Positions 1 through 21,289 of a stretch of 64,000 nucleotides of DNA are shown in pieces; positions within the stretch are counted from its first letter, which is position 1, and the number at the start of each line of letters is the position of its first letter. Source of the DNA: Ruditapes philippinarum (taxonomy: Eukaryota); contig NW_026861259.1 in NCBI RefSeq assembly GCF_026571515.1, positions 1 through 64,000 on the forward strand, written 5' to 3'. Under the pieces are notes generated by a model. It did no database searches. It was not told the origin of the DNA and was given only the letters and a program-made list of their open reading frames with translations. Made by a program: the position numbers and the translations under genes.

Positions 1-261
1 TTTTAAGAATAATACTAAAACATATAAACTTAAAGAAAATTTCGATTAAAAATAATATTGACAGCTTTGATCATTTGGGAGAAAACGGCCTGACATAGAT
101 TATCTTTTTGATACTTCATTTAGTATAATGACCATAGGTACAGAATCATATATGTGTAGACATTAACTATGAACTACATAGCAATGGTACGTGCTTGAAC
201 AGTCATTCGAATGAACCAAAATTTATTTTACTAATAAGATTTACCTTTTAAAATTTGCAGT

Positions 262-2030
262 AGTAGTATAAAACTGGGGGGAGAAATCACCACCTAGGTG
301 GTTCTTGCTTCTTGGGTTACTGCGCATGCGTGAAAGGGGAGATAAACGTGAAAATATGTTCAATGGCCTCCTGGGGGGCCACTAGAACCAAAAACAGGTC
401 TTAACTCCATTGGCACCAAAAATTCCTGAAAGTCTGCGAGTGCCTCAGAATCAGTCGCAGACCACTAAAATGGACTCTAGAAGGTCCCCAGAAGTTAAAA
501 ATGTCATTATCTGCATTGGCACCAAAAATTCCTGAAATTCTGCGAGTGCCTCAGACGCAGTCGCAGACCACTAAAATGGACTCTAGAAGGTCCGCAGAAG
601 TCAAAAAATGTCATTATCTGCATTGGCACCAAAATTTCCTGAAAGTCTGCGAGTGTCTTAAGAATCAATCGCAGACCAATGAAATAGACTCGGGAGAATC
701 CCTAGATGCCAAAAATATCATTATCTGAATTGGCACCAAAATTTCCTGAAAGTCTGAGAGTACCTCAGACACAGTCGCAGACCACTAAAATGGACTCGGG
801 AGAGTCCCTAGAAGTCAAAACTACAATTATCTGCATTGGCACCAAAAATTCCTGAAAGTCTGAGAGTACCTCAGAATCAGTCGCAGACCTCTAAAATGGA
901 CTCTACAGGGTCGCTAGAAGTCAAAACTACAATTATCTGCATTGGCACCAAAAATTCCTGAAAGTCTGCGAGTGCCTCAGAATCAATCGCAGACCAATGA
1001 AATAGACTCGGGAGAGTACCTAGATGCCAAAAATGTCATTATCTGCATTGGCACTAAAATTTCCTGAAAGTCTGAGAGTACCTCAGACACAGTCGCAGAC
1101 CACTAAAATGGACTCGGGAGAGTCCCTAGAAGTCAAAACTACAATTATCTGCATTGGCACCAAAAATTCCTGAAAGTCTGCGAGTGCCTCAGAATCAATC
1201 GCAGACCAGTAATATGTACTCTAGAAGGTCCCCAGAAGTCAAAAATGTCATTATCTGCATTAGCACCAACAATTCCTGAAAGTCTGAGAGTACCTCAGAT
1301 ACAGTCGCAGACCAGTAAAATGGACTTTAGAAGGTACCCAGAAGTGAAAATGTCATTATCTGCATTGGCACTAAAAATTCCTGAAAGTCTGCGAGTGCCC
1401 CAGACTCTAGAAGGTCCTTAAAAGTAAAAAAAAAAAAAAAAAATGTCATTATCTGCATTGGCACTAAAAAATCCTGAATGTCTGCGAGTACCTAAGAATC
1501 ACTCGCAGACCAGTAAAAAATGGTCTCTGGAAGATTCCTAGAGCTCAAAAATGTCATGATCATAGACCCAGTCTTAACCTCATAGACATCAAGAATCCTG
1601 AAAGTCTACGAGAATGCAACCAAACTATTCTATGACTTGAATACACTGAGAATTTTTGAAATGTCATTTTCCCACGATGTCTTCAAGTAATTTACATTTT
1701 TTGAACGTTCATTTACATTTAAAAAGGGTGTAAATTAAAACCACTCTATTAATAAAGAAACCTATTTCCTGCGCTGAATAGAAAATAACAAGATAAATAT
1801 CATAATTTTCATTAAAATGTAAATTTTATACAGGTGTGAGGGGTCTATAACCTCGTCCATCAAATACGGCTATTGAAACGTTGACAAACTTAATTACCCC
1901 ATTTCCCGTGTTTGAAAAGGTAGTATGATACACACCCGCTGATTTATAATTAAAATGTAAATTGTATACATATATGGTATGATACTACCCGCTGATTATA
2001 AAAAAGTAAAAAGTAAATTGTATACAGATA
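262..2030 (+). repeat. Left terminal inverted repeat region: near-perfect tip, ~106-bp array, degenerate inner segment
   Basis: 262-439 is the reverse complement of ~15759-15937 with about 1 substitution and 1 indel. ~1650-2030 is a diverged inverted copy of ~15195-15505. Inner boundary approximate. Confidence 0.9.
408..1560 (+). repeat. ~106-107-bp tandem repeat array, about 11 copies, inside left TIR
   Basis: CATTGGCACCAAAAATTCCTGAAAGTCTGCGAG...GCAGACCACTAAAATGGACTC...AAAAATGTCATTATCTG recurs at ~106-bp spacing (about 411, 517, 624, 731, 837, 944, 1049, 1155, 1261, 1366, 1459). Confidence 0.95.
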
Positions 2031-2261
2031 TGGTCTATTTTCCCACGAGAAAATATTTGTTAAAAAAGTGTCTCTGGCAACCCAAATATTTCATTCTTTC
2101 AGTCGAACTTAAATAGTGAACATCTTAAAGCAAGTTAAATGTTTGAAAATATTATACGAAATATACTCGGATATAATAGTGTTTAAGTTACTGTTTTTAT
2201 CAAAAACACATTGTATTAAAGATTTTGGCTTATCTGTGTATAGTGCATTTTACTTACAAAC

Positions 2262-2783
2262 ATGAAAAGAAGTCATAGTAGTGATGCTTCAAGTGATAGC
2301 AGTGATGAAGAAACTTACGGACAGATGTGTGAGAATGAAAAAGATAAAGAAAAGTTACTGTCCTGTCAAGTGTGTTTTAAAAAATATAAAAACAGACAAA
2401 CGTTAAAACGTCACATGCAAACTCACATAAGCAATCGTAAATGTGAATTGTGTGAAAAAGCATTTACGAGACTAGAGAGCTTACGAAAACACCAAAAGAA
2501 CATTCATGGAATACATCACGAGAAGAAGCAAAGCACGACTTCTTTCCTTTGTGAATTGTGTAACAAATGTTTTAAAACGAAATATAATCTTGTGCGACAC
2601 AAAAGTAAGGTGCATCAGTCTGCTACTCCTAAGCAGCAACAAAATCAGTTTTCCTGCCGACATTGTGAGATGGAATTTTAAAGTTACGACAAATTATTTC
2701 GTCATGTAACTCAGAGACATCCATTAAATCAACAAGGAGGAAGGAGTGCGGAAAGATCTCGCACACTTGATGTAAACGAGCCC
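2262..2783 (+). CDS. C2H2 zinc-finger array (4 fingers), probable N-terminus of pPolB, interrupted by TAA at 2679-2681
   Basis: Fingers are CQVC..HMQTH, CELC..HQKNIH, CELC..HKSKVH and CRHCEMEF*SYDKLFRHVTQRH, the last spanning the stop. The frame stays open from 2682 into the pPolB ATG at 2784 (same frame). Confidence 0.85.
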
Positions 2784-5700
2784 ATGCAGGATCACACTGA
2801 ACTGCAAGTCAATGTTGCAAATGATAAGACTGAGGCTGACGATGTTGCAGTCCATAAACAACGTCCTGAAAATCAGTTACATGAAACCACTGATGAATCA
2901 GCTTTGAGGAACGGCGTGCAGAACAGACATATTTATCCAAGAGGCAGTGAGAGATACGATTTAATGATTTTTTTCGGTAACATCCGAGATCAAATCACCA
3001 CATTTTTACGCAATCGTGTACGCATACTTGGAGGTATTAAATGGAACCTATGCGTGCAAATAGAAATGCAGAGAGATGATGGAGAAGACGCTACAGTTAC
3101 AGCGCCATTTTTTAGAAGTCGTACTTACTTCACTTTGTCGGCGGAGGATCTAAATGAGCATGACTTGAACGAGGCTATGCAAAAGATGTACGCGAGTCTT
3201 GAAAAATACATACGTGAAGGGTCGGGCTGGTATGTTAAAAAAGTTTTGAAACTCGAAATTCATACTGTGGTATACAAACCTGTAAACGGCTCTGCTTACA
3301 TTCCTTTACCAAAGTCACTGACCTTAAGTCACAGTCTATTGAACATTGAAAACGACGACGATAGATGCTTCTTGTACTGCCTACTTGCTTCTCTACATCC
3401 AACACAGACAGAGCCAGAACGTGTAGATAACTATTACCAGCATGAGAGTGAAGTCGACATGCGCGGTATCACTTATCCCGTTACTATACCGCAAATACGC
3501 AAGGTGGAAAATCAAAATCAAAATATGTCCATCAACGTATTTACCTGCGAAGAAGATTTGATCGTACCTCTAAGGATCACAGAGCATCGTCATCGTTTAC
3601 ATCACGTGAATTTATTGTGGTTGACCTGTGGAGAAAAGTCTCATTATTACTTAATTATGGACTTGAACCGCTTTCTGTCACGCTCAAAAACACATCGCGC
3701 TCAGATGTATTTTTGTTCTTATTGCTTGCACGGATTTTGGAAAGAAAAGTCCTTACAGGAACATGAACAATTTTGTTCAACCCATGTAGCGCAAAGAATA
3801 GAACTTCCTGTAAGCGGTAAAAATGATATTCTTGAATTTAAGGATTACGAAAAAACTTTGAAAGTCCCCTTCGTCATCTATGCCGATTTTGAAACGATTA
3901 ACAGAAAGCTGCACACCTGCGCTCCAAATCCTAAGCATTCCTCCACCACAGCGACAACAAAACTCGAAGTCTGCGGATTCGGATATAAAGTGGTGTGTGA
4001 AGATGAGAAATACACCAAACCTGCTGTCATTTACAGAGGTGAAAATGCCGGGATGAAAATGATTGAATGCTTGTTACAAGAGCAGGAGGAAATAAAAGAG
4101 ATACTTTCAACCATTGAACCTATGCATTTGACAGAAGAACACGATGACCTCATTGAAAACGCCACACACTGCTGCATTTGTAAAAAAGATTTCTCCATTA
4201 ATGATAAGGGCTATGGAAAAATAGTCAGACATCATAACCATCTGACAGGGGAGATCATTGGTCCAGCTTGTAACAAGTGTAACCTTAATTGTGAGCAGGC
4301 AAAATTTACTCCTGTGATATTTCATAACCTGAGAAACTTTGACGCGCATATTTTATGCGAAAGCCTCGGCCTGTTTAAAGACTTTCCTCTCAGATGCATT
4401 GCTCAGAATTCTGAACGTTATGTCAGTTTTTCTCTCGGTAAGCTTAGATTTATCGATAGCTTCCAGTTTCTTCCCGCCTCATTAGAAAGTTTGGTAGACA
4501 ATCTAGCGCAAGATGGATTACAAGCGTTTCCATCCCTTCTGTCAGAATGCAACTCTGAGGAGGAAGCCGAGCTCCTGCTTCGAAAGGGAGTCTATCCTTA
4601 TGACTATATGGACTCCTTCGACAAGTTTGACGAGTCATCACTACCATTAAAAGAAGAGTTCTATTCCACCATTAAAAAAGAACATATTTCGGGGGAAGAT
4701 TACGATCATGCGCAGGCTGTTTTTGATAGATTTAGTATGACGTCATTAGGAGAGTACCACGATCTCTATTTGAAAACGGATGTACTGTTACTGACTGATG
4801 TATTTGAGTCCTTTCGAGAGGTATGCTTGACACAGTATGAGCTGGATCCCTGTCATTTCTATACATCACCAGGTTTATCGTGGTCGGCTTTACTGAAGAA
4901 AACGGAAGTTCAGCTGGAATTACTCACAGATATTGATAAAATACTCATGGTGGAGGCTGGCATTCGCGGAGGTTTGTCACAGATCTCCAATAGATACAAG
5001 AAGGCCAACAATCCATATCTGGAGGAATATGACACATCTAAACCCCTGACCTACTTACAATATTTAGATGCCAATAATCTCTACGGGTGGGCTATGGTAC
5101 AGCCCCTTCCCATAAGCGACTTTAATTTCATGGAAAAAGAAGAAATTGGAAACTTTGATGTCATGTCTATTCCAGAGACTGGAGACTTTGGCTATATACT
5201 TGAGGTATCACTTCACTATCCTCACAGGTTACATGACCTTCACAATTGCCTCCCTTTAGCGCCAGAGCAGAAGGTTATCTCCAATGAGCAACTCTCACCA
5301 TATGCGCAACAATTGTTAAGAAAAGTGTATGGTTTAAACGATGCTGATCCATTACCTACACGAGGTCAAGAAGGGAAGTTACTGGCGACTTTAGAGGACA
5401 AAAATAAGTACATCCTGCATTACAGGAACTTACAGTTATACTTACTGCTAGGGATGGAACTCAAAGCTGTCCACAGAATTTTAAAATTCAGACAAGAAGC
5501 CTGGATGAAACCTTACATCGACTTTAATACAGAGATGCGTAAGAAGGCCACTTCCAACTTTCAGAAGAACTTTTACAAATTGATGAACGTTTCCGTCTTT
5601 GGGAAGGTCAGTGTGTGTAATTGTTTTTTATAATGTCTTTAGATATTTTTACGAAGTTTCACCGTTAATAATTTTATTATGAACAAAAAAATCTTTTTTT

Positions 5701-6890
5701 ATTTATAATTTATTAATCATTGAGAAAAAAAAATCAGAAAACTTTATACGTTTTTAATAAATTATTCTTTTCGTTTTTATTGTCAGTGGAAATAGAATTT
5801 GAGCTACTCTTTTTTATTTTTTTTATCACTCTTTTTTAAGACCATGGAAAATGTGAGGCGTCATAAAAACATTGAGCTGGTGCATACAGAAGAAAGACTT
5901 TTAAAAGTCACTGCAAAACCAACCTACAAAAATACAACCATCTTCAATGAAGACCTCGTAGCCGTTGAACTGCACAGAGCAAAAGTTGACTTGTTCAAAC
6001 CTATCTACTGTGGCATGTCCATACTAGGTGTGCGCTATTTTTTCTTTTTTTTTTTGTTCTTGTAATAATATTTTTACATTCTTAAATAATATTCTACAGT
6101 TTTTTTAACAGTCTTTTTTTTTTTAAAATGAAGCGTGTTTTTACGACTTCCATGAATTAATTAATTTATTCATTTATTTTCAGACTTAAGCAAATGTCTT
6201 ATGTACGACTTTTGGTACAATTACATCAAAAAGCGGTATGAGCAATCAGCTCAGCTTCAAATGACGGATACAGACAGCGTCTTATTTTCTTGTGAAACTG
6301 AAGATATGTATAAAGACATGGAATCCTCTGCAGAGTTCTTTGATACGTCTGATTATCCAAGAGAACACTTCCTTCACAGCGATAGGAATAAAAAAGTTCT
6401 TGGCAAAATGAAGGACGAGACCAATGGGAAACCTATTTCTGAATTTGTTGGTCTTAGATCTAAAATGTACAGTTTTGTGTGTGATAAAAAGGAAGAAAAA
6501 CGTGCTAAGGGTATCGCTAAGGTTACAGTAAAAAAGGATTTGAAACACGCGCACTATAAAAATACTCTTTTAGATGAGACCAGTGTTGTTTCTTCTATGT
6601 CATCCCTGAGGAGCCACAAGCATGAACTTTTTGGCGAAACTATTCAGAAAACGGGATTATCCGCCTTTGACGACAAGAGATATCTCATTAATGCGGTGGA
6701 TAGTTATGCGTATGGACACTATAAAATCTCTGACGATAGTGTTGATATGGCGCCTGAAAGTGATGCACAGACATTTACAGTTGCGCCTGTAGAGGACTAT
6801 TCAACCAATCATGCTGCTCGTTATCAAATGCTAGAGGAAAATGCATTTACGATTGGTGACTTTAAAATCACTCCTTGTATTAAACAGTAA
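2784..6890 (+). CDS. polB: Protein-primed family B DNA polymerase (pPolB), spliced; exons 2784(or 2262)-5606, 5841-6027, 6184-6890
   Basis: ExoI YADFE, ExoII FHNLRNFD, ExoIII YLKTDV, motif A YLDANNLYG, motif B KLMNVSVFGK|TMENVR, GMSIL|DLSKCLMYDF, motif C TDTDS. Also an N-terminal NDDDRCF..SHY (vOTU-like) region and an EndoVII-like CxxC..HHNH..CxxC insert. 1238 aa from 2784, or 1412 aa with the zinc-finger extension. Confidence 0.95.
5607..5840 (+). other. Spliceosomal intron 1 of pPolB (234 bp, phase 0)
   Basis: AAG|GTCAGT ... CTTTTTTAAG|ACC. AT-rich with a pyrimidine tract. Splicing gives FGK-TMENVR. Confidence 0.93.
6028..6183 (+). other. Spliceosomal intron 2 of pPolB (156 bp, phase 1)
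   Basis: CTAG|GTGTGC ... TTATTTTCAG|AC. Splicing gives SIL-D-LSKCLMYDFWY, in frame with the 6201 ORF. Confidence 0.92.
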
Positions 6891-6914
6891 ATACTCATTT
6901 TGTATCTATGTACA

Positions 6915-7005
6915 AATAAATTATATTTCTATTTAACAAATGAACTATACTAGATATCAATAAAATAATGACAAACTATCGTCTGATTTTTTCTCCCTAT
7001 TTATT
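6915..7005. terminator. Convergent polyadenylation signals
   Basis: AATAAA on + at 6915-6920 after the pPolB stop, and AATAAA on - at 7000-7005 just past the reconstructed protease stop (7029). Confidence 0.55.
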
Positions 7006-7028
7006 TATATATAAAACGTATTGAATAA

Positions 7029-7547
7029 TTAAAAGCATCCTTTTAAAAAGCTACATGCCTGATTAAAATGTTCATTCCCTATACAGTGGGAGTATGCTTG
7101 CAACATCGTGCCAGCCACATAATTGTCATTAGAATCTAAAGTGAATCCATCAAATCAATTTATAATGTCTTGATATGTATATCCAACGAGTCTTTGATGG
7201 AGAAACAATATACAATATAGTCCACATAATAATGAGTGATCACCCTGAATTTGAACATGATTTGACTGTAAACTGTATGCTTTCATGTCTAACCAACGCT
7301 GAAAATAATGGCTGTTTTGACTTGGCGTTCTTCCATAACTGTCAAAAAATTCCACATCTCCTTGAACATCGCTGAAAAAGGCGCACCAATGTTTTCCTGG
7401 TTTTGTATGAATGTCAGTGTTAGCAATAAATCCATAGGGTGTTCTTGGAAGTTGCCTAGGAAGTTTGTCTGCAGCAAAAACGCCGATGATTCGTCCATTT
7501 AAAACTGGATCACAATTAATCATGCATTCCAACTGTGACGTATTCAT
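7029..7547 (-). pseudogene. Adenain-like (Ulp1/C5 family) cysteine maturation protease, premature TGA at 7155-7157
   Basis: MNTSQL..GVFAADKLP..IANTD..PGKHW..EFFDSYG..QIQ..CGLYC gives the H/D/Q/C catalytic set. The frame continues past the TGA (FDGFTLDSNDNYV...GCF*) to 7029. Confidence 0.9.
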
Positions 7548-7551
7548 TTGT

Positions 7552-9046
7552 TTATGGAATAATAATATCTCTTTCGTGATTGATTTCAAAATAGCCAGGC
7601 CCTTCGCTGTAGGCAAGGCAGCTTATAGGTTCTGAAATACGATAAAAACAAAAAAAAATCATAAGTAAAAGGGTTTTTTTCTATAAGAATTCAAGACTTG
7701 AAGTAAAATAATATCTAAACAGGAAAACTTACATATATGTATATATATATTAAAAACTAAATACATTGAAACTAAAATAAAATTAGAAAAAAAATATTCT
7801 TACCTGTTAATGGCGTCTTGAAGACCACATCTAGCCGCACATTCCCCGTCTTTACAAGAGACAGATATTCTCCGTGATGTGAAAAGTTGGGCTCTAACTG
7901 GAACACGAACAAGGTTGAGCCGCTTAAATAGTGGCTCCTGTCTAGGAGATTGCCTTCGTCCTGTCTCCACTTTCCACTGGATAGAAGCAAGTTGGTGTAG
8001 GCGCGCATGATTGCCGTGCCTCCAGCAGCGTCAAAATCAAGTTTCAATGGATTTCCTCCAATGGGCAGTCCATCGCAGTATATGGCAATTTGTTGAATGG
8101 AGCAATTCTCAAAGTTGAAAGGGTTGGTCTTGTAATCACCGCTTAACGCCCTGCTTTTGACAAATCCCAAGATGATTTTGTTGGGACGTCTTCCTTGAAA
8201 CATATTTTCCCAGCTATAATTGGTTAAGCCAGTAGACATGCTCACTGATCTCACCTCCACTTTATCGTAGGGGTATAAGGCGTTCTGTTTCTCCAAAATC
8301 TTAGAATGCCCGTAGATGACGGCAGGGTTTACTCTGATTTTTCTAGCGAGAATATAGATATCCTCGATATTCACTTTGTAATGACTACCATCTCCAGTGA
8401 GCAGACAAAATTCGGGTGGACTTCTATACAGTTTCACTTTCACATCTACTTGATTTATCAAATATCTCTCCATGGAAAACAAGTCGTGAAAAATAGGTCC
8501 TTGCAAGTCAACGCGTTTAGATTCGCCGATGATTTGGGCTCTCAGAAACAGGCCGTTGTTATTTCCGTTGGGATCTGTCACTCCTGGACTGTCTGCATCG
8601 TCTCTGATAAAAAGCTGCGTATCCAGCTGACTGGTTATCGCGTCTGATCCATAATTCAGAAGCGTTTGCATGTAAGCTCTATAGGGGTTGTAATTACACG
8701 TGATGGTGGCTTTGTTTTGCAAAGTGACTTCAGCCGTTGAAAATAGTGACTGAAGAAACAGATTGGCAGGCCCCACCTTCTCCACCTTTACATTCGTGAG
8801 AGCCGTCCCATCTGACTTTTCTACCTTTAGTCGCACATAGATTTGTGAATTTTTCAAGTCCAGATAATCCATAGAGTTTTGCCCGCTGATTTTAAACTCA
8901 AAAGGGCTATCGCCAGACACCTGAGATAGTGGCCGAATTTCATCGTAGTAAATATCATTCACACTCGTTTGTGTGCTGGGCAAATCAAACAAAGCCAGCT
9001 CAGACACAAGTCCTTCTTTAAACTTCTCTTCATTGAACACTGACAT
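7552..9046 (-). CDS. Major capsid protein (double jelly-roll), spliced; exons 9046-7804 and 7631-7552; 440 aa
   Basis: SELALFDLPSTQTSV..EIRPL..PFEFKISG..YLDL, NPFNFEN and GNVRLDVVF motifs. Spliced C-terminus EPISCLAYSEGPGYFEINHERDIIIP matches the typical Polinton MCP end. Confidence 0.93.
7632..7803 (-). other. Spliceosomal intron in MCP (172 bp, phase 1)
   Basis: Minus strand ACAG|GTAAGA ... TTTTTATCGTATTTCAG|AA. Confidence 0.9.
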
Positions 9047-9049
9047 TCT

Positions 9050-9488
9050 TTAGTTGATTTCAAATATATCCTTTTCCCTTTTTGCGCGCGATTTTGTCTT
9101 TCCCTTTGAAAATGTTTTTTTCTTGGATTGTGTCTTTTTCTTGCCACTACCACGTTGACGTTTAAGTCCTTTATACGATTTTTTGCTAGTTTTCTTGCGC
9201 TTAGTTCCACGTCTCTGCTGCCTAGATGAAGACTGAAGCATGTCAACAACACTCGCTGGATTTATATCCTCCCTCTCTAGCTCAGATTTAGCTTGAGCAG
9301 TCGTTTGTTCTGCTGGTAATACCGCCTTTAGTGGATACACTTTATTACTGTCCACAGCTTTATATTCGTCCACAGGAATGACAGAAAAAACACCTCCCAC
9401 CTCCTGATTGGTTTAATGTCGTTTTTCCACTGCTGACACGATCAAAAAAATCCACCCACTTTTGTGGATTAGGCACATACAATTTCAT
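9050..9488 (-). pseudogene. Basic core-like virion protein, +1 frameshift near 9390
   Basis: ATG at 9488 gives MKLYVPNPQKWVDFFDRVSSGKTTLNQSGGGR. One extra T in a T-run shifts into SVIPVD..PAEQTTAQAKSEL..K/R-rich tail. Lies between minor and major capsid genes. Confidence 0.7.
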
Positions 9489-9491
9489 GTT

Positions 9492-9923
9492 TTAGTAAAA
9501 TGGATATTGCTTCAAATGAAGTGTTAGGTGCAATGGTGATTTTAAATATGACGGGTAACTACCATCTCCAAGCTTTATATAGATCTGAAATTCTCGCAGC
9601 TCCTTCCTTTTCACGGGTAGATAGTAAGGCGTGTTGAACATATAATTCCAACCGTTTCTTTCGTTTTTATCCAGCCGTCGCAACAGCGGTTGTTCCGCGC
9701 CATGCACAATACTTTCTTTGCAAAGGTCCGTGTAAATGTATAGGCTGTCCGTCGTTTTAGTTCTAGACTTAGAATCGTCTGCAGCGTTAAACTCTGTGAG
9801 CGCGACTGCCCATTTACCATTTAAAGTCAATGACATATTTAAATGCACTTTAAATCTGTACACTTCATTGTCAGAAAAGTAGTTGTCACTGTCGTCACTT
9901 TTGATGTATAAATATTTATCCAT
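9492..9923 (-). CDS. Minor capsid protein (penton, single jelly-roll)
   Basis: YLYIKSDDSDNYFSDN..FKVHL..WAVALTE..LYIYTDLCKESIV..PLLR..YYLPV..LTLHLK pattern and position in the morphogenesis module. Confidence 0.85.
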   Translation of the reverse strand: MDKYLYIKSDDSDNYFSDNEVYRFKVHLNMSLTLNGKWAVALTEFNAADDSKSRTKTTDSLYIYTDLCKESIVHGAEQPLLRRLDKNERNGWNYMFNTPYYLPVKRKELREFQIYIKLGDGSYPSYLKSPLHLTLHLKQYPFY

Positions 9924-10002
9924 GGTGTTTATGGAACGCGTTCCAAAACGTCTTTGATGTTAGTTGAAATTGATGCAACTATTTAATTTAGAAAACTAAT
10001 CG

Positions 10003-10356
10003 TTATTCGTCTGCCATATACATCGTGTCACTTTCAGCAGCTATGGTTTGGTAAATGTACTGAGGACGTAGTACTCTAGCTAGCAATGAATGATGTCTAA
10101 GTAGCGCTCTCATTTTTCTTCGTGTGTTTACTTGCCTAGACCCTATAGTTCTCATGGTGAGTTTTTGATCTTCAAAGATATAAGCATCGCGCTGGTTAAT
10201 GGGGATAGACCTAGTTGTTAATCTTCTCATAATTTCAGCAATGGCATCTATTTGTCCAGCAGTTATTTGACGAATTAAATGACGACGAGCACTTGCTACC
10301 GCATTTTTTAAGCTAAACAAATAATTCAGTTCTTGAAACACTCGCGAGCGTTCCAT
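10003..10356 (-). CDS. Small basic helical Polinton protein of unknown function; paralogue of 11967-12278
   Basis: ATG ORF in the packed gene block. LIRQITAGQIDAIAEI..IPINQRD..QKLTMR aligns without gaps to the 103-aa ORF. Confidence 0.75.
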   Translation of the reverse strand: MERSRVFQELNYLFSLKNAVASARRHLIRQITAGQIDAIAEIMRRLTTRSIPINQRDAYIFEDQKLTMRTIGSRQVNTRRKMRALLRHHSLLARVLRPQYIYQTIAAESDTMYMADE

Positions 10357-10371
10357 GATAACATAAGATGT

Positions 10372-11485
10372 TTATGCTTTACCTTCAGACACGTCTTTGA
10401 CGTCGTCAGCATCTACCCAGCTATTAAACGTTTTAGGGAAGCCTTGCCATTCCACAAAATATTGCAGTTTCTTATTTCTTTTTCGTCTTCTTAATATACG
10501 TTCTATGAACCATAAACTATTTTCATCTTTGTTTACCTTTTGAAGTTCGCCTGTGTAAAACAAACCCTTTTATACTGTCACCTTTTAAATCTGTTATCTT
10601 GTACATGGGAATACCTTGTTTTAGAATTCTTCCCGCCACTTTAAACACTTCTGTGGTGTATTGTTCTTGATAAGCACGTTGAAAGGGTTGTTTTGTGAAA
10701 CTAATACGTACAAGATCTCCCACTTTAAACTGAAAACTAGGCTTTGCTGTTCTTGTTTTTGACTTTTTCAAATACATTCGCGCCCACACATTAGCTTCAT
10801 TTCCTTTGTTCACATCGTTTGGAGCTAATCCATGTAACCCCCTGTGAGGAGTAGCGTTGTAGCTGGCTACCACATCTTGTAGATCATCGATATATCGATA
10901 GGTTCTATTGTGTCTCATCATTCTATACAATTTCTCTTTCAGTGTCCTCTGAACTCTTTCCACAAAGTTACTTTTGGGAGGATTGTTTGTGGTGAAAAAG
11001 TCCTTCATATACTTCTTAAACCACTGGTTGGAAAACTCGCTCCCTTTATCCGCGCGAACTTTCTGAATTTTCGTTGGAGAAATGTCCTGCAGAATGTCTT
11101 TCATAGCTTTTAAAACCACCTTGGCCGTCTTGTTTTTTAGAGGTCTTACCCAAAGTTTTCTAGATAAGATGTCAATGACGCAAAGCAGGAATCGTACGCC
11201 ATCATTTTCGTCAGCTAGATTCGCCATGGACAGAAGATCTATATCTAGCTGTTCCCCAATAGAGGTGACACGCACATTCGCCGTCTTAAATTTGTGTCTT
11301 CTGGTTTTCTGCAGTGAATAAGCGTCTTGGTCGTTGAGCCATTGTTTGATGTAAGCTTTTGTAAATACTCCTGAATATTTCTTATCAAGAACTTGGAACA
11401 CCTTTTGAGCACCCGCATACGCGGCGGGATTTTTTGTCTCAAAATAATACTTTTGTAAAATGTTATTTTTCTCTTTCTCATCCAT
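10372..11485 (-). pseudogene. Retroviral-like DDE integrase (c-integrase) with C-terminal chromodomain, +1 frameshift near 10563
   Basis: LDIDL, RADKGSEF, VERVQRTLK and YNATPH motifs. GGG-T-TTG-TTT-TAC: removing one T joins IKG to LFYTGELQKV..IERILRRR..YFVEWQGFPKTFNSWV (chromodomain). Confidence 0.93.
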
Positions 11486-11584
11486 GTTATTCAGTTACTG
11501 TTATTCTCACGAAATGAACGAAAGCTTTACATGGTTTCCTTATTTGAACTGGACTATGTTTTTTTTTTCTTTCACCTTTTCACA

Positions 11585-11962
11585 TTATATAGTGTAATTA
11601 ATCCATCGTGATTTTATGCCTTTCTTCTTTGCACTAGACAATTTCTTTCCGTCAAAATTTCTTTTCGCTATCTTTCTTTGTTTGCCTTTAGAAGGTGATA
11701 ATTTTATCCTGTTGAAAGGCATCCTGGAGAGTGGTTTGTCTACATAGAATCTTGGTTTCTCCTCCATACTTTGCTCATTTTCACCTTTGCTATTGCTTAT
11801 GTGCTTCTCCTCGGAATCCATGTTTTCTGACCCAAGATCAGGATAAGACAAGTCTTTATTCTCTCTTTGACCGCCGATTTGTTCCTTCAGTTTAGAATCT
11901 TCCATAAGTTTCACTAAATGTTCGTATTTACTTTTGGGAATGAGCACAAGCTCACGCGCCAT
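11585..11962 (-). CDS. Polinton hypothetical protein (125 aa from ATG 11962)
   Basis: MARELVLIPKSKYEHL N-terminus, QIGG motif, basic tail ending RWINYTI. Tightly packed with its neighbours. Confidence 0.7.
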   Translation of the reverse strand: MARELVLIPKSKYEHLVKLMEDSKLKEQIGGQRENKDLSYPDLGSENMDSEEKHISNSKGENEQSMEEKPRFYVDKPLSRMPFNRIKLSPSKGKQRKIAKRNFDGKKLSSAKKKGIKSRWINYTI

Positions 11963-11966
11963 TACT

Positions 11967-12278
11967 TTATAACAGTTCGCTTTTGACTGCAGCAATAAAA
12001 GGTAAAATATATTTGAAGTATTTCAGAAGCAGTTCTTTTCTCTTTTTCAACGAAAGTCCTTTGCTCACAAATTGCCGAATGATAAGTTTTCGTTTGATTA
12101 CATGCTTTTTGTCTTTTTCTGTCAGTGGGCGAACGCCAATCAGGATATTATACACAATCTGCACAATAGCGCTTAACTGCAACTTCTCAATGTTTTGTAT
12201 TAAAACCTTCTTCTGTTTGTCAGATGTATGGAGAAGTAACAATAAAAAATCCTTCTCTTTTCTAATCAAAGGATTCAT
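11967..12278 (-). CDS. Small basic helical Polinton protein of unknown function
   Basis: ATG overlaps the ATPase TGA (ATGA). LIQNIEKLQLSAIVQIVYNILIGVRPL pattern resembles a small ORF recurrent in animal Polintons. Confidence 0.8.
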   Translation of the reverse strand: MNPLIRKEKDFLLLLLHTSDKQKKVLIQNIEKLQLSAIVQIVYNILIGVRPLTEKDKKHVIKRKLIIRQFVSKGLSLKKRKELLLKYFKYILPFIAAVKSELL

Positions 12279-13074
12279 GCTGCCTTTTCTGGTTGATAAA
12301 CTATCATTAACTGACCAGGCAATATGTTGGTGCGAAGTTTATATTTTGGGTCTGAATGTGGAGATAGATCCACCAGGAGATATCTATATTTCTCCGCAGT
12401 AGCCTTCTTGTACGCGTCCATAAAAAACTTTACTCGCCCAGGGAAGATTTGACGTCCTAAAGTCTGTATTTGTAATTCATCTCGGCTGCTTTTAAACAAA
12501 AAGAAATAATGTGTGTTTAAACTGATGGTGCGAAATTCGCGTCCTGGACAAAATGCGTTTTGACAAATAAGAAAGCAGAAGTATTTGTAATGGTGGGCAT
12601 ATTTGCAATAAATGTCGACTACATCTTTGCTTTTGGCGCTCTCACTCATTAAGTCATCAATGACTAATATTTTTTCTCTTGGCTCATTCATGTGCCAAGT
12701 TTCAAGTTCAGCTTTTGTGGGAAGTCCTTCATAAAAGGTAATGCTGGGAATGGCTTTCTTCACTTCAGCATAGAGAGGTTGATCTACACTATAGCAGTAA
12801 TAGATGGCTTTAATTGGTTTTGTGAAAGCTACGTTGGCATGTTTCAATAGTTGAAACACGAAACTACTTTTTCCAACATTGCTCGGGCCTACAAAGAAAA
12901 AAGAAATAGAAAAATCATTGATAAAGTTTGTTTTTATTAAAAAATAATCTTCATATATATACTAAATTAGAAACCGTCTAGTAACGATGTTGTCAACAAC
13001 AGCAATGAAATGTAGAACTAACCTATTACTTGTGCTGTAGAATCTACTTCTAGTTTAACATATAAGTCATCCAT
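12275..13074 (-). CDS. A32/FtsK-HerA-like genome-packaging ATPase, spliced; exons 13074-13023 and 12888-12275; 221 aa
   Basis: Spliced N-terminus MDDLYVKLEVDSTAQVIG|PSNVGKS (Walker A), Walker B ILVIDD, LICQN and RTISLNTHY motifs. Confidence 0.93.
12889..13022 (-). other. Spliceosomal intron in ATPase (134 bp, phase 1, within the first Gly codon of Walker A)
   Basis: Minus strand ATAG|GTTAGT ... TTTTTTCTTTGTAG|GC. Confidence 0.9.
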
Positions 13075-13352
13075 TCTCTCTCAAGTGATGCAACGAAAAT
13101 GACATCAAGAAATACTTTTCAAGATATATTTATATAAGAGGAGGGAGGGCTAAAAGGGACGTAGTTTGCAAAAAAAAAGTAACATCTTGTGAAAGTTTAT
13201 AATGTTTATTAGCAGCAACCTTCAGATACAATTTACATATCAAGATACATTAAAACATTTACAAATACGTTTTCACAACACATCTTAATGATTCACTAAA
13301 CCGTTATCTGATCCTTTTCAACAGCAAATAGTTTTCACTCGCTCTAAATAAG

Positions 13353-13751
13353 TTAACTGAATCGGTTTTCCAGTGAAAGCAGTCGCAAACTCATTCTTAT
13401 CATTTTATTTTTCCACTCTAAAGTTGCCATGTTCATTTCGCGCCAGTCTTTCCAGTAGATCTTTAGCTCCTATAAATCCAGTAGCTCAGAAGATACATGA
13501 AGGACAGAAGCAACTTCGTGCAATTTCATTAAAATCTTAAACTCATTGACTTCATGCAGAACATCATTGAAATATAACGTTAATTGTTGCTTATTTGATA
13601 AATTGATGCACATATGATCCAGTTGTGATAAACAAGATTGTTGACATCCGAAACACTTCTTTTTAAACACAGAATAGATTTTCTCACGTATTTCTTCGGC
13701 GTAGAAAAAGTCAAAATAAGATTTCAGTAATGAAACTTTACTGAGCTCCAT
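13353..13751 (-). CDS. Polinton accessory protein with CxxC..SQxxHxC motif; TAG at 13470-13472 possibly premature
   Basis: CFGCQQSCLSQLDHMC. The frame stays open 38 codons past the TAG (ELKIYWKDWREM...ENRFS*). AATAAA on - at 13205-13210. Confidence 0.65.
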
Positions 13752-13769
13752 ATTTCTGTTACATATAGC

Positions 13770-14138
13770 TTAGATATCCACATTCACTGAGGAAAATGCA
13801 CCATAACCCCAACACCGTGGTTGATTATCTGATGTTGTCCCTGTAAGCCCAGTTAGTTTTAAATAAACGCATTCAGATGACCACTTTAGGTGTTCAGCAA
13901 AGGGAGTATCATTAACACTCCACTGATACACTCTAGCTCCGCAAGCAAAACATTCCACTATATCTCCCTCCTTGGTGTAAAAGAATCCTGCATTAACTAA
14001 AGTATATTTATCCTGTTTCAGTTGTTTGGGCCATGTTTCAAAAGTAGACAGCCGATCTTCATACTTCGCATACTTTTCCCATTTCAATTTACATCCAAAA
14101 AGTAGAGTGTCATTGGAATTCATGTTTGCGCTTGTCAC
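13770..14138 (-). CDS. Single-BIR-domain inhibitor-of-apoptosis-like protein (likely ATG at 14123)
   Basis: RLSTFETWP..LVNAGFFY..GDIVECFACG..W..DTPFAEHLKWSSEC is a complete BIR CX2CX16HX6C. No RING domain. Confidence 0.92.
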   Translation of the reverse strand: MTSANMNSNDTLLFGCKLKWEKYAKYEDRLSTFETWPKQLKQDKYTLVNAGFFYTKEGDIVECFACGARVYQWSVNDTPFAEHLKWSSECVYLKLTGLTGTTSDNQPRCWGYGAFSSVNVDI

Positions 14139-14150
14139 TCAAATACTTTA

Positions 14151-14900
14151 TTACCAGGTTTGAAACACACCATTCACTACAGTAATTGGAAACGATGTGT
14201 TCGATTCGTTTTGTGCAGTATATTTTGTAGGCTGTTCTTGTCCCGCGCTTTCATAAAGGTAATTGCTATCATTTAAATTATTTTGTAAAACGTTGTCATA
14301 TACAGTATGTTTTGTAGGCTGTAACTGTTCAACGCTTTCGTAAAAGTCGTTGGCGCCATTTTCGTCATTTAGTGTTTCGCTGCCAACGTTCCAGTCATCC
14401 ATAATCCCAGGCACACCAAGTTGGTTCTGAGGAACCTCCTCAAACATGTTGTAGCTTGATTCTTCATTAAACAATTCACTGTTTACATGATCATGTACTA
14501 TAAATGGCTGACTCGTTTCCAAATCGCTACAGCTATCCTTACATATTTTGTCATATATGAAGCTACCTTCTTTAAGCGTATCTCCTATAATTTTGAACTG
14601 TTCACATTCTCCTTGTTTTTCTGGCGTGGTGTTGTTTAACTCTTCAGTAGAAATAGTACCTTCTAGCTGTTTGTTAGTTTTTGTGTTTTTAAAACACCTT
14701 TTTTTAAAGTTTTTCTTTGTAAAATGATATTTACTTCCCAAATGACGAGAAACGTAAAATTCAGTCATCCACTTTTTACACGTTGCACAGAATATGTTTT
14801 TTATTCCATCCTTTTTCATTTTTGACGTAATACAATGCCTCTCATAGTTTTGATGATAAATTTTACTTTTATCTAATATATTCAGTTGTGCCTGTGTCAT
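14151..14900 (-). CDS. Hypothetical 249-aa protein with one C2H2/matrin-like zinc finger and an acidic repeat tail
   Basis: FCATCKKWMTEFYVSRHLGSKYH, plus internal repeat FYESVEQLQPTKHT / LYESAGQEQPTKYT. Confidence 0.65.
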   Translation of the reverse strand: MTQAQLNILDKSKIYHQNYERHCITSKMKKDGIKNIFCATCKKWMTEFYVSRHLGSKYHFTKKNFKKRCFKNTKTNKQLEGTISTEELNNTTPEKQGECEQFKIIGDTLKEGSFIYDKICKDSCSDLETSQPFIVHDHVNSELFNEESSYNMFEEVPQNQLGVPGIMDDWNVGSETLNDENGANDFYESVEQLQPTKHTVYDNVLQNNLNDSNYLYESAGQEQPTKYTAQNESNTSFPITVVNGVFQTW

Positions 14901-15194
14901 GACTGCTTAATAAGCTAATGCAAACAAGACTGTTTTCATTTATTCAAAAATTGGGAATCACACACATTAAAGTACTGCCTCTTATTTTTTATTGGTTGAA
15001 AAGAATCACGTGTTAGGCTTCTGTATTTGATATATATATTTTTAGATCTGAGACATTACATGATTCTATAAAAAATTATGCTAATACCATTTATAATTGA
15101 TGGATTCTTTCTGTTGAACCTAGGTTTTACAGAAATTTTAATATATTAGATTTTTTTTAAATTAAACACACCAGGACCACCAGTCAATTGAATG

Positions 15195-15937
15195 AAATTT
15201 TACATTTTAATTTTCTAAAGCAGTGGGTAGTATCATACCACCTTTTCAAACACGTGAAATAGGGTGATTAAACCTGTCAACGTTTCCATTGTGAAATTTG
15301 ATGGATGAGGTTATGAACCTCCACACCTGTACATAATTTACATTTCAATGAAAATTGCCAGATTTATCTAATCATTTTTCTCTTCAAGACAGGACATTGG
15401 TTTTATTTTCACCCTTTACAAATGGTAATTGAACGTTCAAAAGTTTAATCTAAATGTAAATTACTTGTGACATCGTGGGAAAATGACATTGCAAAAATTC
15501 CACAGAATAGTTTTGGAGAGGGTGGGACTGGGAGGTGCTTGCATTCTTGCTGACTTTCAGGAAATTTTGGTGCCAATGCAGATAATGACATTTTTGACTT
15601 CTAGGGACCTTCTAGAGTCCATTTTACTAGTCTGCGACTGATTCTGAGGCACTCGCAGACTTTCAGGAATTTTTGGTGTCAATGCAGATAATGACATTTT
15701 TGGCATCTAGGGACTCTCCACAGTCCATTTCAGTGGTCTGCGACTGTTTCTTGCACTGTCGCAGACTTTCAGGAATTTTTTGGTGCCAATGGAGTTAAGA
15801 CCTGTTTTTGGTTCTAGTGGCCCCCCAGGAGGCCATTGAACATATTTTCACGTTTATCTCCCCTTTCACGCATGCGCAGTAACCCAAGGAGCAAGAACCA
15901 CCTAGGTGGTGATTTCTCCCCCCAGTTTTATACTACT
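15195..15937 (-). repeat. Right terminal inverted repeat region, only about 2.3 copies of the 106-bp unit
   Basis: Reverse complement of the left end. Repeat units at ~15550-15790. Confidence 0.9.
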
Positions 15938-16257
15938 TGCAGTTCTTTTAATTTTGTATCAATGATCTCTGACGTTTTGTTTTGTAGTGCTTCGATTGTC
16001 TCACCAAACTTTTGCTATGTTGTGTTAATGCTTAACGAGTGTTTCGCCTGTTTTTCAACCATTTCATTTAGTTTCCGGTCAACACTTTTCACTGTTTGTT
16101 CCATTTCAGATTTCATTCTCTCCATTTGAAATTCCATGCGAACCATTTTCTCTAACACTTTCTCTTCGAAATCATATTTTGAACAGTGCAGTTCCTCCGA
16201 CTTTGCACATGTTAGTAGGTAACTCAATAAAAAAAATTTACAGAATGAAATTCTCAT
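15938..16257 (-). pseudogene. C1qDC copy F exon 1, split by the Polinton (rest at 245-261, donor GT at 244-243), nonsense TAG at 16015-16017
   Basis: MRISFCKFF..CSKYDFEEKVLEKMVRMEF..TT*QKFGETIEALQNKTSEIIDTKLKELQ|ILK. Paralogues read TTQEKLSEK. Exon 2 would lie left of the window. Confidence 0.92.
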
Positions 16258-17994: not shown

Positions 17995-19564
17995 TTTTTA
18001 GCTCACCTGAGCATATGCTCAGGGTGAACTATTAGGATCACTCTTCGTCCGTCGTCTGTCGTCCGTCGTCCGTCGTCCGTCGTACGTCGTCCGTTGTCCG
18101 TTCACACTTTTCAAACGACATCTCCTCTGAAACCATAAGGCAGATCATAATGAAACTTCACAGGGATGTTCCTTGTGTGAAGCCTTAACAAAGTTGTTCA
18201 AAGAATTCCATTCCATGCAGAACTCTGGTTGCCATGGCAACCAAAAGAAAAAACTTTAAACATCTTCTTCTAGATAACCCAAAGAGCTAGAGCTTAGATA
18301 TTTGGCATGAAACATCTTCTAGTGAGTGTCTACCAAGATTGTTCAAATAAAAGCCCTGGGGTCAAAATTGGCCCCGCCCCAGGGGGTCATTGATTTTCCC
18401 TATAGGCATATAGTAAAAAACTTAAAAAATCTTCTTTTAAAGAACCCAAAGAGCTAGACCTAAGATATTAAGCATGAAACATCTTCTAATAAGTGTTCTA
18501 CCAAGATTGTTCAAATAAAAGCCCTGGGGTCAAAATTGGCCCTGCCCAGGGGTCATTGATTTTCCCTATATGCATATAGTAAAAATTTTAAAAAATCTCT
18601 ATTAAAAAACCCAAAGAGCTAGACCTAAGATATTAAGCATGAAACATCTTCTAATAAGTGTCTACCAAGATTGTTCAAATAAAAGCCCTGGGGTCAAAAT
18701 TGGCCCCGCCCCAGGGGGTCATTGATTTTCCCTACATGCATATAGTAAAAACTTTAAAAAAATCTTCTTCTAAAAAACCCAAAGAGCTAGAGCTTAGATA
18801 TTTGGTGTAAAACATGTTCTAATGGATGTCTACCAAGTTTGTTCAAATAAAAGCCCTGGGGTCAAAATTGGCCCCGCCCCAGGGTTCATTGATTTTCCCT
18901 ATATGCATATAGTAAAAACTTAAAAAAATCTTCTATTAAAGAACCCAAAGAGCTAGACCTAAGATATTAAGCATGAAACATCTTCTTATCAGTGTCTACC
19001 AAGATTGTTCAATAAAAGCCCTGGGGTCAAAATTGGCCCCGCCCCAGGGGGTCATTGATTTTCCCTATATGCATATAGTAAAAACTTAAAAAAAAATCTT
19101 TTAAAGAACCCAAAGAGCTAGAGCTAAGATATTTAGCATAAAACATGTTCTAATGGGTGTCTACAAAATTTGTTCAAATAAAAGCCCTGGGGTCAAAATT
19201 AGCCCCGTCCCAGGGGTCATTGATTTTCCCTATATACATAGAGTAAAAAGTTTAAAATCTTCTATTAAAGAACCCAAAGAGCTAGAGCTGAGATATTTAG
19301 CATGAAACATGTTCTAATGGATGTCTACCAAGTTTGTTCAAATAAAAGCCCTTGGGTTAAAATTGGCCCTGCGTGGGGGAAGGGGGGGGGACAAAAGTCA
19401 TTGTTATTCATAATTTGTGTATAGTAAAATCTTAACATCATGAAATATCTTCTAATGGGTGTCTTCCAAGTTTGTTCAAATAAAAGCCATTTGGTTTAAA
19501 ATGGCCCGGCCCTGAGGGCCTATGTTCAGGTGAGCGACCCTAGGGCCATCATGGCCCTCTTGTT
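17995..19564 (+). mobile_element. Non-autonomous Helentron-type element (HINE) carrying a ~166-bp tandem array (about 7-8 copies)
   Basis: Subterminal IR GCTCACCTGA / TCAGGTGAGC, (CGTC)n microsatellite, 164-168-bp repeats with GGGGTCAAAATTGGCCCCGCCCC, 3' hairpin AGGGCCATCATGGCCCT, T-rich flanks. Confidence 0.85.
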
Positions 19565-19919
19565 AAATCACATGAGCGTTGATGTGACCATGGGCAACTG
19601 TAGAGAACATATAATATATCAACCCAATACATTTCGAGATTTTCTTAGAAACATGAAGCATTGAAAATTTGCCGCGTCAATCTACGTATTGGTAACTTTC
19701 GGAACACATACTTGATTACCAATAATCATGATAGTCGGTTTCCGGACGGAAAGCGCAGAGAAAATGCTAGTATTTATTGATACTTACTTTTTAAACTACC
19801 CTCTAAATCATGGCAGTCTGCTCTCAATTACAGATGAAATGTTAGAATAACAGAATAACAGGATATGTAAAACACGCTTAATATTTAATGAATATATCAC
19901 GGATGTTTACGGCCTTTAA

Positions 19920-20966
19920 CACGGTGCATATCCATATCGGTACCCTCTTTGCGAAATCTGCTGAAACGGCACCCTCTTTGTACATGCACAGGCCACTCTC
20001 TGCTCAAAACAAACCAGCGATGGATATCAAGCCAGTAAAAATTCATTGCAATAAGGAAAGGAGGTATAACACGTGGAAAAGATGTATACCACGGAACACT
20101 AGAATGTTTTATCTATGTACTGATTTGCCATGTGCCCGTTTTTCATGTACTGCAACTTCACAATAAGCTACAAAAAATCGACATGTCTTACCTCGCCCAT
20201 CACCTCGACATACTTTTCGGGCTGAAATGAACAAGTGGCTTGATTATGTATGCATCATACTTATTCAATATGTTTATTTACATATCATCTTCGGACAAAT
20301 GGCAGTACATTGTCAAAAATAAATGTAAAATTCATAAAAACACCCTACTTTCGGTTTTGCAGCGGCACGGGCTACCTCTCTTCATTTGAATTTTTATATC
20401 ACAGGTACCCTCTCATTTTTAAACACACATAGGTACACTCAATGCACGACATATGATTTTATTTGCGTTAATCGTTAAGTATGTAATATTTACATAAAAG
20501 TAAGAAATAAAAACTGAGAGGTAGCCCGTGCCGCTGCAAAACCGAAAGTAGGGTGTTTTTATGAATTTTACATTTATTTTTGACAATGTACTGCCATTTG
20601 TCCGAAGATGATATGTAAACGAACATATTGAATATGTATGATTCATATATAATCAAGCCACATGTTCATTTCAGCCCAAAAAATATGTCGAGGTGATGGG
20701 CGAAGCAAGACATGTCGATTTTTTGTAGCTTATTGTGAACTTGTCGTACATGAAAAACGGGCACATGACAAATCAGTACATAGATAAAACATTCTAGTGT
20801 TCCGTGGTATACATCTTTTCTACGTGTCATACCTTCTTTCCTTATTATTACTGTATGGTTATCCATCGCAGATTTGTTTTTAGCAGAGAGTGGCCTGTGC
20901 ATGTGCAAAGAGCGTACCGTTTCAGCAGATTTCGCAAAGAGGGTACCGATATGGATATGCACCGTG
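19920..20966. mobile_element. Foldback non-autonomous DNA transposon with CACGGTG...CACCGTG ends and 5-bp TSD (Transib-like)
   Basis: Arms 19920-20380 and 20516-20966 are inverted copies. TTTAA at 19915-19919 and 20967-20971. The paralogous empty site near 42040 has a single TTCAA. Confidence 0.8.
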
Positions 20967-21289
20967 TTTAAGACTTTGTAGACCGGAATCTTAATTGTAA
21001 AAACCAAATATCCTAAAACATAAATCAGCCATGTCATAAATTGCTGCGTTTCTCACGCACATCTTCCGTATGTCTGTTTTTTAATAAAATGAAAGCAAGT
21101 ACAGTTAAACCCTTGAACTTTATGTATTATATAAAATATTATTATTGTATGGATGAGTGCTTCAGACTAGATAAAGTCACTTTATTGGATACTCGGAAAG
21201 AGTTCTTCAATAACTTCTACTACTGCTATTTTACTACTGCTGTTACTTGGCTGCTACTTTAATTTAATGACACATTTGTACCAAGTTTC

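Follow-up and report, generated by a model that had tools for sequence, protein, structure and literature searches.

Putative spliceosomal introns in the core genes of a Polinton/Maverick element from the clam Ruditapes philippinarum

Are the segments that interrupt the core genes of a Polinton in the clam Ruditapes philippinarum introns that the element hands on from insertion to insertion, or damage to a dead copy? The question is raised by the first 64,000 nucleotides (nt) of contig NW_026861259.1 (NCBI RefSeq assembly GCF_026571515.1; this whole stretch is called the window below), in which a Polinton of 15,676 bp (positions 262-15937) has four such segments, two in the DNA polymerase gene pPolB and one each in the genes for the major capsid protein and the packaging ATPase. 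Polintons/Mavericks, also called polintoviruses or adintoviruses, are 15-20 kb long, have terminal inverted repeats and a 6-bp target-site duplication, and encode pPolB, an integrase, an ATPase, a protease and a double jelly-roll capsid protein (Barreat and Katzourakis, 2021, PMC8097293; Starrett et al., 2021, PMC8502044; Widen et al., bioRxiv 10.1101/2022.07.12.499685). The clam element, recognised here by its gene content, is alike in all of these respects. Polintons as described have intronless core genes, whereas three core genes of the clam element appear to contain inherited introns.

The explanation that we favour, with a probability of about 0.85, is that this Polinton belongs to a bivalve-associated clade with ordinary U2-type introns in its core genes, which are removed by the host spliceosome and inherited from DNA to DNA. 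The lineage very probably needs the splicing machinery of its host and escapes searches that expect unbroken genes. An earlier note, made from the letters of the window alone, had proposed a splicing-dependent lineage with four introns. The dependence stands; the count does not, as introns appear to have been gained, lost and shifted by 5 nt among relatives, and the window copy is itself broken.

The four segments in the window

All four segments lie exactly where the earlier note had placed them (Table 1), and each has a GT donor, a pyrimidine tract and an AG acceptor; a branch-point-like word is present in two of the four. They are also far more AT-rich than the exons, as had been noted (GC 0.18-0.24 vs 0.31-0.44), and every one contains stops in all three frames. 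In spliced alignment, uninterrupted templates with 54-67% identity returned the exact intron coordinates, in three of three cases for both polymerase introns and in three of three for the capsid intron. None of four uninterrupted ATPase templates reached the 17-codon first exon of that gene, which was recovered with the NCBI model of Mya arenaria as template. This exon scored 123 against eight uninterrupted N-termini (maximum of -6 over 1000 shuffles) and is clearly homologous to the N-termini of uninterrupted ATPases. The templates being independent database proteins, the agreement is not circular.

Read without splicing, the polymerase would end before Pol C, the capsid protein would lack its last strand (residues 417-431 of the capsid model, severed by the intron), and the ATPase would lack its start codon and the context of Walker A. 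With truncated products in all three genes, splicing would be obligatory.

The introns are mutually dissimilar, as claimed (12 comparisons, lowest p 0.03). No terminal repeats were found in them (best 5-7 of 15 nt), and the repeats at their junctions measure just 2-4 nt. Two of the four were searched in the genome, with a search that skips simple repeats, and matched the sister insertion described below only, or nothing else. No fifth intron was found in the integrase, protease or minor capsid genes, or in the contigs compared with the window. Group I introns are disfavoured by the GT-AG ends, the AT-richness, the lengths of 134-234 nt and the lack of conservation, no dedicated group I test having been made. 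An assembly artefact is ruled out by the presence of the same segments in sequencing runs and in other copies.

Intron positions in other copies and relatives

A separate insertion in the same genome (G000:C12520) has 82% nucleotide identity to the window element and an inverted ATPase block. It contains all four introns at the window positions, with lengths of 185, 128, 160 and 113 nt and intact GT/AG ends. Between the two copies, the ratio of nonsynonymous to synonymous substitution rates (dN/dS) is 0.02-0.12 in the large exons; in the small ones it is 0.055 (pPolB exon 2, 61 codons), 0.05 (capsid exon 2, 24 codons) and 0 (ATPase exon 1, 12 codons). By this estimate the small exons are under purifying selection; dS is saturated for copies more distant than C12520.

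Thirty other capsid loci were examined, from 68 matches in the genome. The capsid intron is present in two of them (C12520 and C8727, the latter at 58% identity), 26 align through without an intron and two fall short; in four distant loci (31-34%) another intron, also of phase 1, lies at residue 161. Similarly, among 21 other polymerases examined, from 78 matches, intron 1 occupies the window position in one and lies 5 nt upstream, in the Gly codon of the same motif, in seven (three copies at 60-64% identity, four at 30-37%); near this site five are degraded and eight uninterrupted. Intron 2 was found in C12520 only. Donor sequences are not conserved between copies. At loci L003, L004 and L046 the intron stands 5 nt apart from that at 5607 within the Pol B motif, and the Gly-Lys codons resemble a donor (G/GTAAG) as well as an acceptor (AAG/), which might provide a way for introns to slide; the pair would reflect either a slide or two gains. 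As for the ATPase, one of 11 others has the intron, seven are uninterrupted, one is degraded, and in two distant ones an unconfirmed break that resembles an acceptor lies one codon upstream. At the intron site, CAG/G is read in the two closest of the uninterrupted ATPases. About 50 further ATPase-like matches at 32-34%, in much longer frames (400-560 residues), appear to form a separate abundant family.

The same genome holds a second, distant Polinton lineage (C14624, C10581, C6604, C7967, C1945, C12418 and C945; loci L056-L063, L074-L075 and L080-L082). Its introns interrupt the polymerase at residues 728, 821 (shared) and 939 and the capsid protein at residue 161, and its ATPase probably has one a codon before Walker A. 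Weak intron calls from copies that are degraded or distant (C4638 at residue 750, C1145, C4396, C13927b, L115, and the C945 and C14985 polymerases) were left uncounted.

Shared intron positions extend to elements at 58-77% protein identity and to other hosts: the NCBI models of Ruditapes, Mya and Mercenaria have these exons joined, and of eight metagenome loci (64-77%, two nearly identical) six have the capsid intron, 105-181 nt long, and the other two end at the junction. Independent insertions thus have intron positions in common, all four in the case of C12520 and that of the capsid gene in C8727 and the six metagenome loci, as the earlier note would lead one to expect.

In database proteins, the intron state was read from the protein ends alone. 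The best 120 of 298 capsid homologs include 79 proteins called as open reading frames (ORFs) that have at least 62% identity and reach the junction, and 78 of these stop there, mostly with Gly-Lys/Glu/Thr/Arg, endings that would be as expected from read-through of the donor. Below 62%, 17 of 18 run through the junction; five of six NCBI models are joined, and 17 proteins fall short. The ATPase homologs (n = 112) behave alike: none of the 51 ORF-called proteins at 64% or more keeps the family N-terminus, vs 31 of 42 at 45-63%. Unrelated residues precede the Gly in 14 of those 51, and 37 start after it; the reading frame of P0013 and P0022 continues through an in-frame intron at this Gly. Such endings bear out the prediction that ORF-based surveys miscall these genes.

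The best 120 of 7913 polymerase homologs include 32 at 62% or more, of which 14 break at FGK-V, four break otherwise, two have intron 2 only, four are uninterrupted, five are joined models and three are short; below 62%, 77 of 88 are uninterrupted. P0119, P0131, P0133 and P0134 are apparent intron losses within the clade, and one uninterrupted polymerase nested in it has 14 cluster members, several of them full-length on megabase contigs. No intron was found at the two polymerase sites of 14 IMG/VR relatives (38-54%), in an exact-peptide-word scan that is weak for the absence of closer relatives. Some clade members (P0122, P0133, P0140, P0275, P0035 and others) occur as truncated proteins in Thiodiazotropha or Sedimenticola bins, where they are presumably host DNA.

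Intron presence, whose mapping the earlier note had proposed, was placed on two quick trees, and in each the intron-bearing close relatives fall in one clade. In the polymerase tree (77 rows, rooted at the midpoint just for display, with three of the four weak uninterrupted rows excluded), they form, with the Mya and Mercenaria models, a clade of 36 rows with a Shimodaira-Hasegawa-like approximate likelihood-ratio test (SH-aLRT) support of 99, which includes uninterrupted rows too; P0211, labelled broken, is merely truncated. The distant intron-rich lineage sits on a long branch, with uninterrupted families in between. In the tree of capsid proteins (63 rows, with two of the three broken rows excluded), all intron-bearing rows fall in one clade, together with three uninterrupted subclades at an unresolved fork. 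The introns mark a clade, and their positions also turn over, as seen in the 5-nt shift, in the apparent losses and in the separate set of introns of the second, distant lineage.

Joined contigs and rival explanations

Of 24 listed runs, X1, X15, X22 and X24 were compared with the window. Contigs of X1 and X15 skip pPolB intron 1 precisely, and record 8 of X15 also joins across 6028-6183, so that both polymerase junctions stand in one contig. The capsid intron is skipped in record 4 of X1 and retained in record 9 of X15. Around the skipped junctions the contigs are about 99% identical to the window. In addition, one capsid variant has the interruption in P0380, a record from JGI, and is joined in P0382, a Logan contig of 2.7 kb. 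We read X1 and X15 as transcriptomes because their assemblies are small (184 and 195 Mb, vs 1351-1551 Mb for X16-X18 and a genome of 1408 Mb), their contigs begin and end near gene ends, and intron retention is mixed. If they are RNA, they demonstrate host splicing of three introns, the two of the polymerase gene and that of the capsid gene; for the ATPase, splicing would follow from comparison with relatives. Of the joined forms sought across four junctions, three were seen, and that of the ATPase was not.

Two observations concern the copies behind these contigs. Record 4 of X1 is a single 5.9-kb contig that runs from the ATPase to the protease gene (window 6993-13039, minus strand) and ends at an AATAAA (7000), the only minus-strand one found just downstream. 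It is a possible shared poly(A) site of the late genes, although the contig alone does not establish a single transcript. Over the 3.5 kb at the 5' end of the polymerase gene (2073-5603), the expressed copies and the window differ at about 160 letters; further 3' they are about 99% identical, which suggests recombination among copies.

Under the favoured explanation, the element would be transcribed in the nucleus, and the host spliceosome would remove introns gained one at a time, at AG/G-type sites in conserved codons, while the element was resident in host chromosomes. Daughter insertions would then inherit them by DNA-to-DNA copying, and the introns would persist because this copying lacks the reverse-transcription step that would purge them. 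With selection acting on splice signals alone, intron length and sequence would drift and positions would occasionally be lost or shifted.

Several points weigh against this explanation. The library type of X1 and X15 is not on record as RNA, the ATPase intron is retained in both of these contig sets, and no splice joints are listed in the raw RNA runs X22 (4% read; 2012 reads matched, many 90-95% alike or partly fitting) and X24 (6% read; 8 reads). The window copy is broken twice, by an in-frame stop at 2679-2681 in pPolB exon 1 and by a disrupted reading frame in the conserved basic ORF upstream of the capsid gene, and the sister copy on C12520 is frameshifted in capsid and integrase; with breaks in both, the activity of either assembled copy is putative. 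Finally, the quick trees cannot separate a single gain followed by losses from repeated gains.

Given the record of X1 and X15, their joined forms might be DNA variants that have precisely lost single introns, and apparent losses such as P0119 do exist in the clade. This is very unlikely: losses would have had to occur independently and precisely several times, in combinations that differ by run, among copies with about 99% identity close to the junctions, and the run sizes and contig ends suit transcriptomes. Moreover, intron-bearing copies would need splicing anyway, and their small exons appear to be under purifying selection. Host domestication of the genes, followed by intron gain, might be suggested by their NCBI annotation as host multi-exon genes, but is highly improbable in view of the full element architecture, terminal repeats that match at 99%, a fresh target duplication in a C1q exon with empty sites elsewhere, relatives that differ in gene order and flanks, and short non-autonomous derivatives with their own 6-bp duplications. 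Damage after insertion, by small transposons or introners that landed in a dead copy, is scarcely conceivable as the source of the segments. Introners do populate dinoflagellate Polinton-like elements, mostly after integration, according to the available text of PMC11957031, and the window copy is broken elsewhere; however, the segments lack terminal repeats, mutual similarity and junction repeats beyond 2-4 nt, and the two that were searched match the sister insertion only, or nothing else. Other copies carry them, no hallmark of a transposable element was seen in them, and their positions are shared by elements with 58-77% protein identity and found again in other hosts. Positions shared across independent insertions refute post-insertion damage, and with the selection on the small exons and the spliced contigs for three of the four introns they uphold the earlier view of introns inherited in a lineage.

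A further proposal is compatible with inherited, spliced introns and adds a selected function to them, namely that they serve adaptive control, either by retention in ATPase and capsid transcripts that delays assembly or by shielding transcripts from silencing. In mammals, HUSH silences intron-less elements. Two distant lineages both have introns in the polymerase, capsid and ATPase genes, placed at the same motifs or no more than 5 nt away from them, and polymerase intron 1 is skipped in two of two contig sets, the capsid intron in one of two and the ATPase intron in none of two. This pattern would fit a late-gene switch, but contigs lose minor forms and may stem from pre-mRNA or DNA, and so give no measure of retention. 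Intron-less lineages in the same genome (8 of 21 polymerases), a successful uninterrupted polymerase inside the clade (14 cluster members) and donors that are not conserved between copies also speak against a selected function, which we regard as unlikely. In its most specific form, with regulated retention as a latent-to-particle switch throughout a large clade of bivalve polintoviruses hidden from ORF searches, in which the polymerase is constitutive, the ATPase and capsid are inducible and two lineages have converged independently, the proposal is decidedly doubtful.

The element, known systems and significance

The element shows every defining Polinton/Maverick feature for which the test outcome was clear; the identity of the minor capsid protein is probable. 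A zinc-finger-pPolB gene lies on the plus strand, and genes for a BIR protein, ATPase, integrase, probable minor capsid protein, major capsid protein and protease lie on the minus strand (Table 1). The Exo and Pol motifs were located in the polymerase, and NCBI assigns proteins identical to those of this element to Ruditapes philippinarum. The polymerase family comes from a precomputed PF03175 annotation on P0115, a protein identical to that of the window; direct Pfam and PDB sequence scans with the window protein gave no match for it. A capsid model built from a 43-sequence alignment (predicted local distance difference test score, pLDDT, 77) matched the double jelly-rolls of Sputnik, PBCV-1 and mavirus with Foldseek E values of 3e-14 to about 1e-13, and PDB sequence searches gave no useful match. 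The candidate minor capsid protein is a conserved ORF of 143 residues whose Atlas neighbours are viral clusters that have no Pfam name, and Pox_A32 scores above its cut-off on the ATPase homolog P0036. The BIR gene also occurs in C8727 and C13927 and was not found in the fetched stretches of C12520.

Table 1. Features of the Polinton and its insertion site in the window.
Feature	Position	Strand	Remarks
Left target-site duplication TGCAGT	256..261	+	Single copy at matching site of C1q paralogs
Left terminal inverted repeat	262..422	+	161 nt; starts AGTAGT
pPolB exon 1	2262..5606	+	C2H2 zinc fingers, endonuclease-VII-like insert, Exo I-III, Pol A, Pol B
pPolB intron 1	5607-5840	+	234 nt, GC 0.20, phase 0, after Lys of FGK
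pPolB exon 2	5841..6027	+	187 nt; dN/dS 0.055 vs sister insertion
pPolB intron 2	6028-6183	+	156 nt, GC 0.21, phase 1, within Asp of ILD
pPolB exon 3	6184..6890	+	Pol C (DTDS) and KxY motifs
Adenovirus-type maturation protease	7155..7547	-	Pfam Peptidase_C5 E 7e-4, under curated cut-off
Major capsid exon 2	7552..7631	-	Last beta-strand of double jelly-roll (model strand 417-431); dN/dS 0.05
Major capsid intron	7632-7803	-	172 nt, GC 0.18, phase 1, within Glu before last capsid strand
Major capsid exon 1	7804..9046	-	Fold matches capsids of Sputnik, PBCV-1, mavirus
Conserved basic ORF upstream of capsid gene	9050..9490	-	Frame broken in window copy
Minor capsid protein (penton), probable	9492..9923	-	Inferred from size, position, conservation
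Retroviral-type integrase	10523..11485	-	Uninterrupted; Pfam rve E 5.5e-7, 30.2 bits vs cut-off 32.6
Packaging ATPase exon 2	12275..12888	-	Walker A after its Gly, Walker B; homologs with Pox_A32
ATPase intron	12889-13022	-	134 nt, GC 0.24, phase 1, within Walker A Gly
ATPase exon 1	13023..13074	-	Start codon and strand preceding Walker A
BIR-domain accessory gene	13770..14123	-	Inhibitor-of-apoptosis-like; Pfam BIR E 5.9e-21
Right terminal inverted repeat	15777..15937	-	99% complementary to left arm
Right target-site duplication TGCAGT	15938..15943	+	Within coding exon of host C1q-family gene

The target-site duplication that flanks both ends is a perfect 6 bp, and subterminal tandem repeats with a unit of about 106 nt follow the left terminal repeat up to about 1520. 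The Polinton disrupts one member of a tandem array of host C1q-domain genes, at least five of which lie in tandem at 15937-62000; the empty site is represented by two paralogs, 48175-48426 and 38708-38963, in which the matches to the two flanks overlap by 6 nt. In X22, 13 reads join both flanks, although close C1q paralogs could also give such reads, and one X15 contig joins the left end of the Polinton to a different flank; both are signs of insertion polymorphism. Two short elements, G000:C4614:19703-26509 (6.8 kb) and C813:78376-84322 (5.9 kb), have the terminal repeats of the Polinton and perfect 6-bp duplications of their own and are probable non-autonomous derivatives. Elsewhere in the window there are two inverted-repeat elements (19914-20972 and 60066-61150; arms of 331 and 442 nt, 93-95% complementary), which probably resemble miniature inverted-repeat transposable elements, and tandem repeats of about 166 nt (18246-19510 and 39614-40889).

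The premise that Polinton core genes are usually single-exon is stated in the available text of two studies. In one, intact vertebrate Mavericks showed no introns, intactness itself meant intronless ORFs and large insertions were scored as decay (PMC8097293); in the other, core genes are intronless and introns occur in cargo genes only (Widen et al., 10.1101/2022.07.12.499685). Intronless core ORFs are thus a descriptive trait and an intactness filter, not a defining feature, and it is from this trait that the clam element departs. Endogenous mavirus-like elements likewise yielded no introns, as far as the source at hand goes (PMC8547959). Intron-like inserts inside Polinton-type elements are known from dinoflagellates, whose Maverick/Polinton-like elements bear introners (Gozashti and Corbett-Detig, PMC11957031); on the accessible text, these are repeated, intron-generating transposons, mostly post-integration, whereas the clam introns are unique, unrelated, apparently old and shared in position across a clade. 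Other DNA-based mobile elements keep one to four GT-AG introns at conserved positions, namely Ginger1 transposons (PMC2836005, in the portion available) and, from a reference title in PMC10294476, Tc1-like elements of molluscs. Unlike the clam Polinton, these are by the same sources single-gene cut-and-paste transposons that encode neither polymerase nor capsid.

Our literature search turned up no description of spliceosomal introns inherited in the core genes of Polintons; it covered neither subscription papers and supplements nor the founding 2006-2007 papers and Repbase, whose entries may already record such exons. The available text of PMC8502044, PMC12220804, PMC11296320, PMC5718144, PMC6431247, PMC10294476 and four preprints contains nothing on them. 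The NCBI pipeline already models these exons, though it does not name the element. What the clam case adds is the transcript-like evidence and the clade-level intron turnover in Polinton core genes.

In adenoviruses and other nuclear DNA viruses, the mRNAs for replication and structural proteins are spliced by the host spliceosome, and the DNA polymerase gene of chloroviruses has an intron. Adenovirus splicing mainly joins leaders to alternative ORFs, whereas the clam Polinton has host-like, AT-rich introns inside conserved motifs of an integrating element, with turnover.

Because Maverick surveys count intronless ORFs alone as intact, intron-bearing lineages are scored as decayed; otherwise, they surface among uncharacterised host genes or, in bacterial bins, as truncated proteins. 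For the gain, loss and shift of introns in ancestrally intron-free genes, the clade offers a compact, countable system. More generally, the expression of such Polintons would be tied to the host nucleus and spliceosome, which bears on the origin of splicing dependence in nuclear viruses such as adenoviruses.

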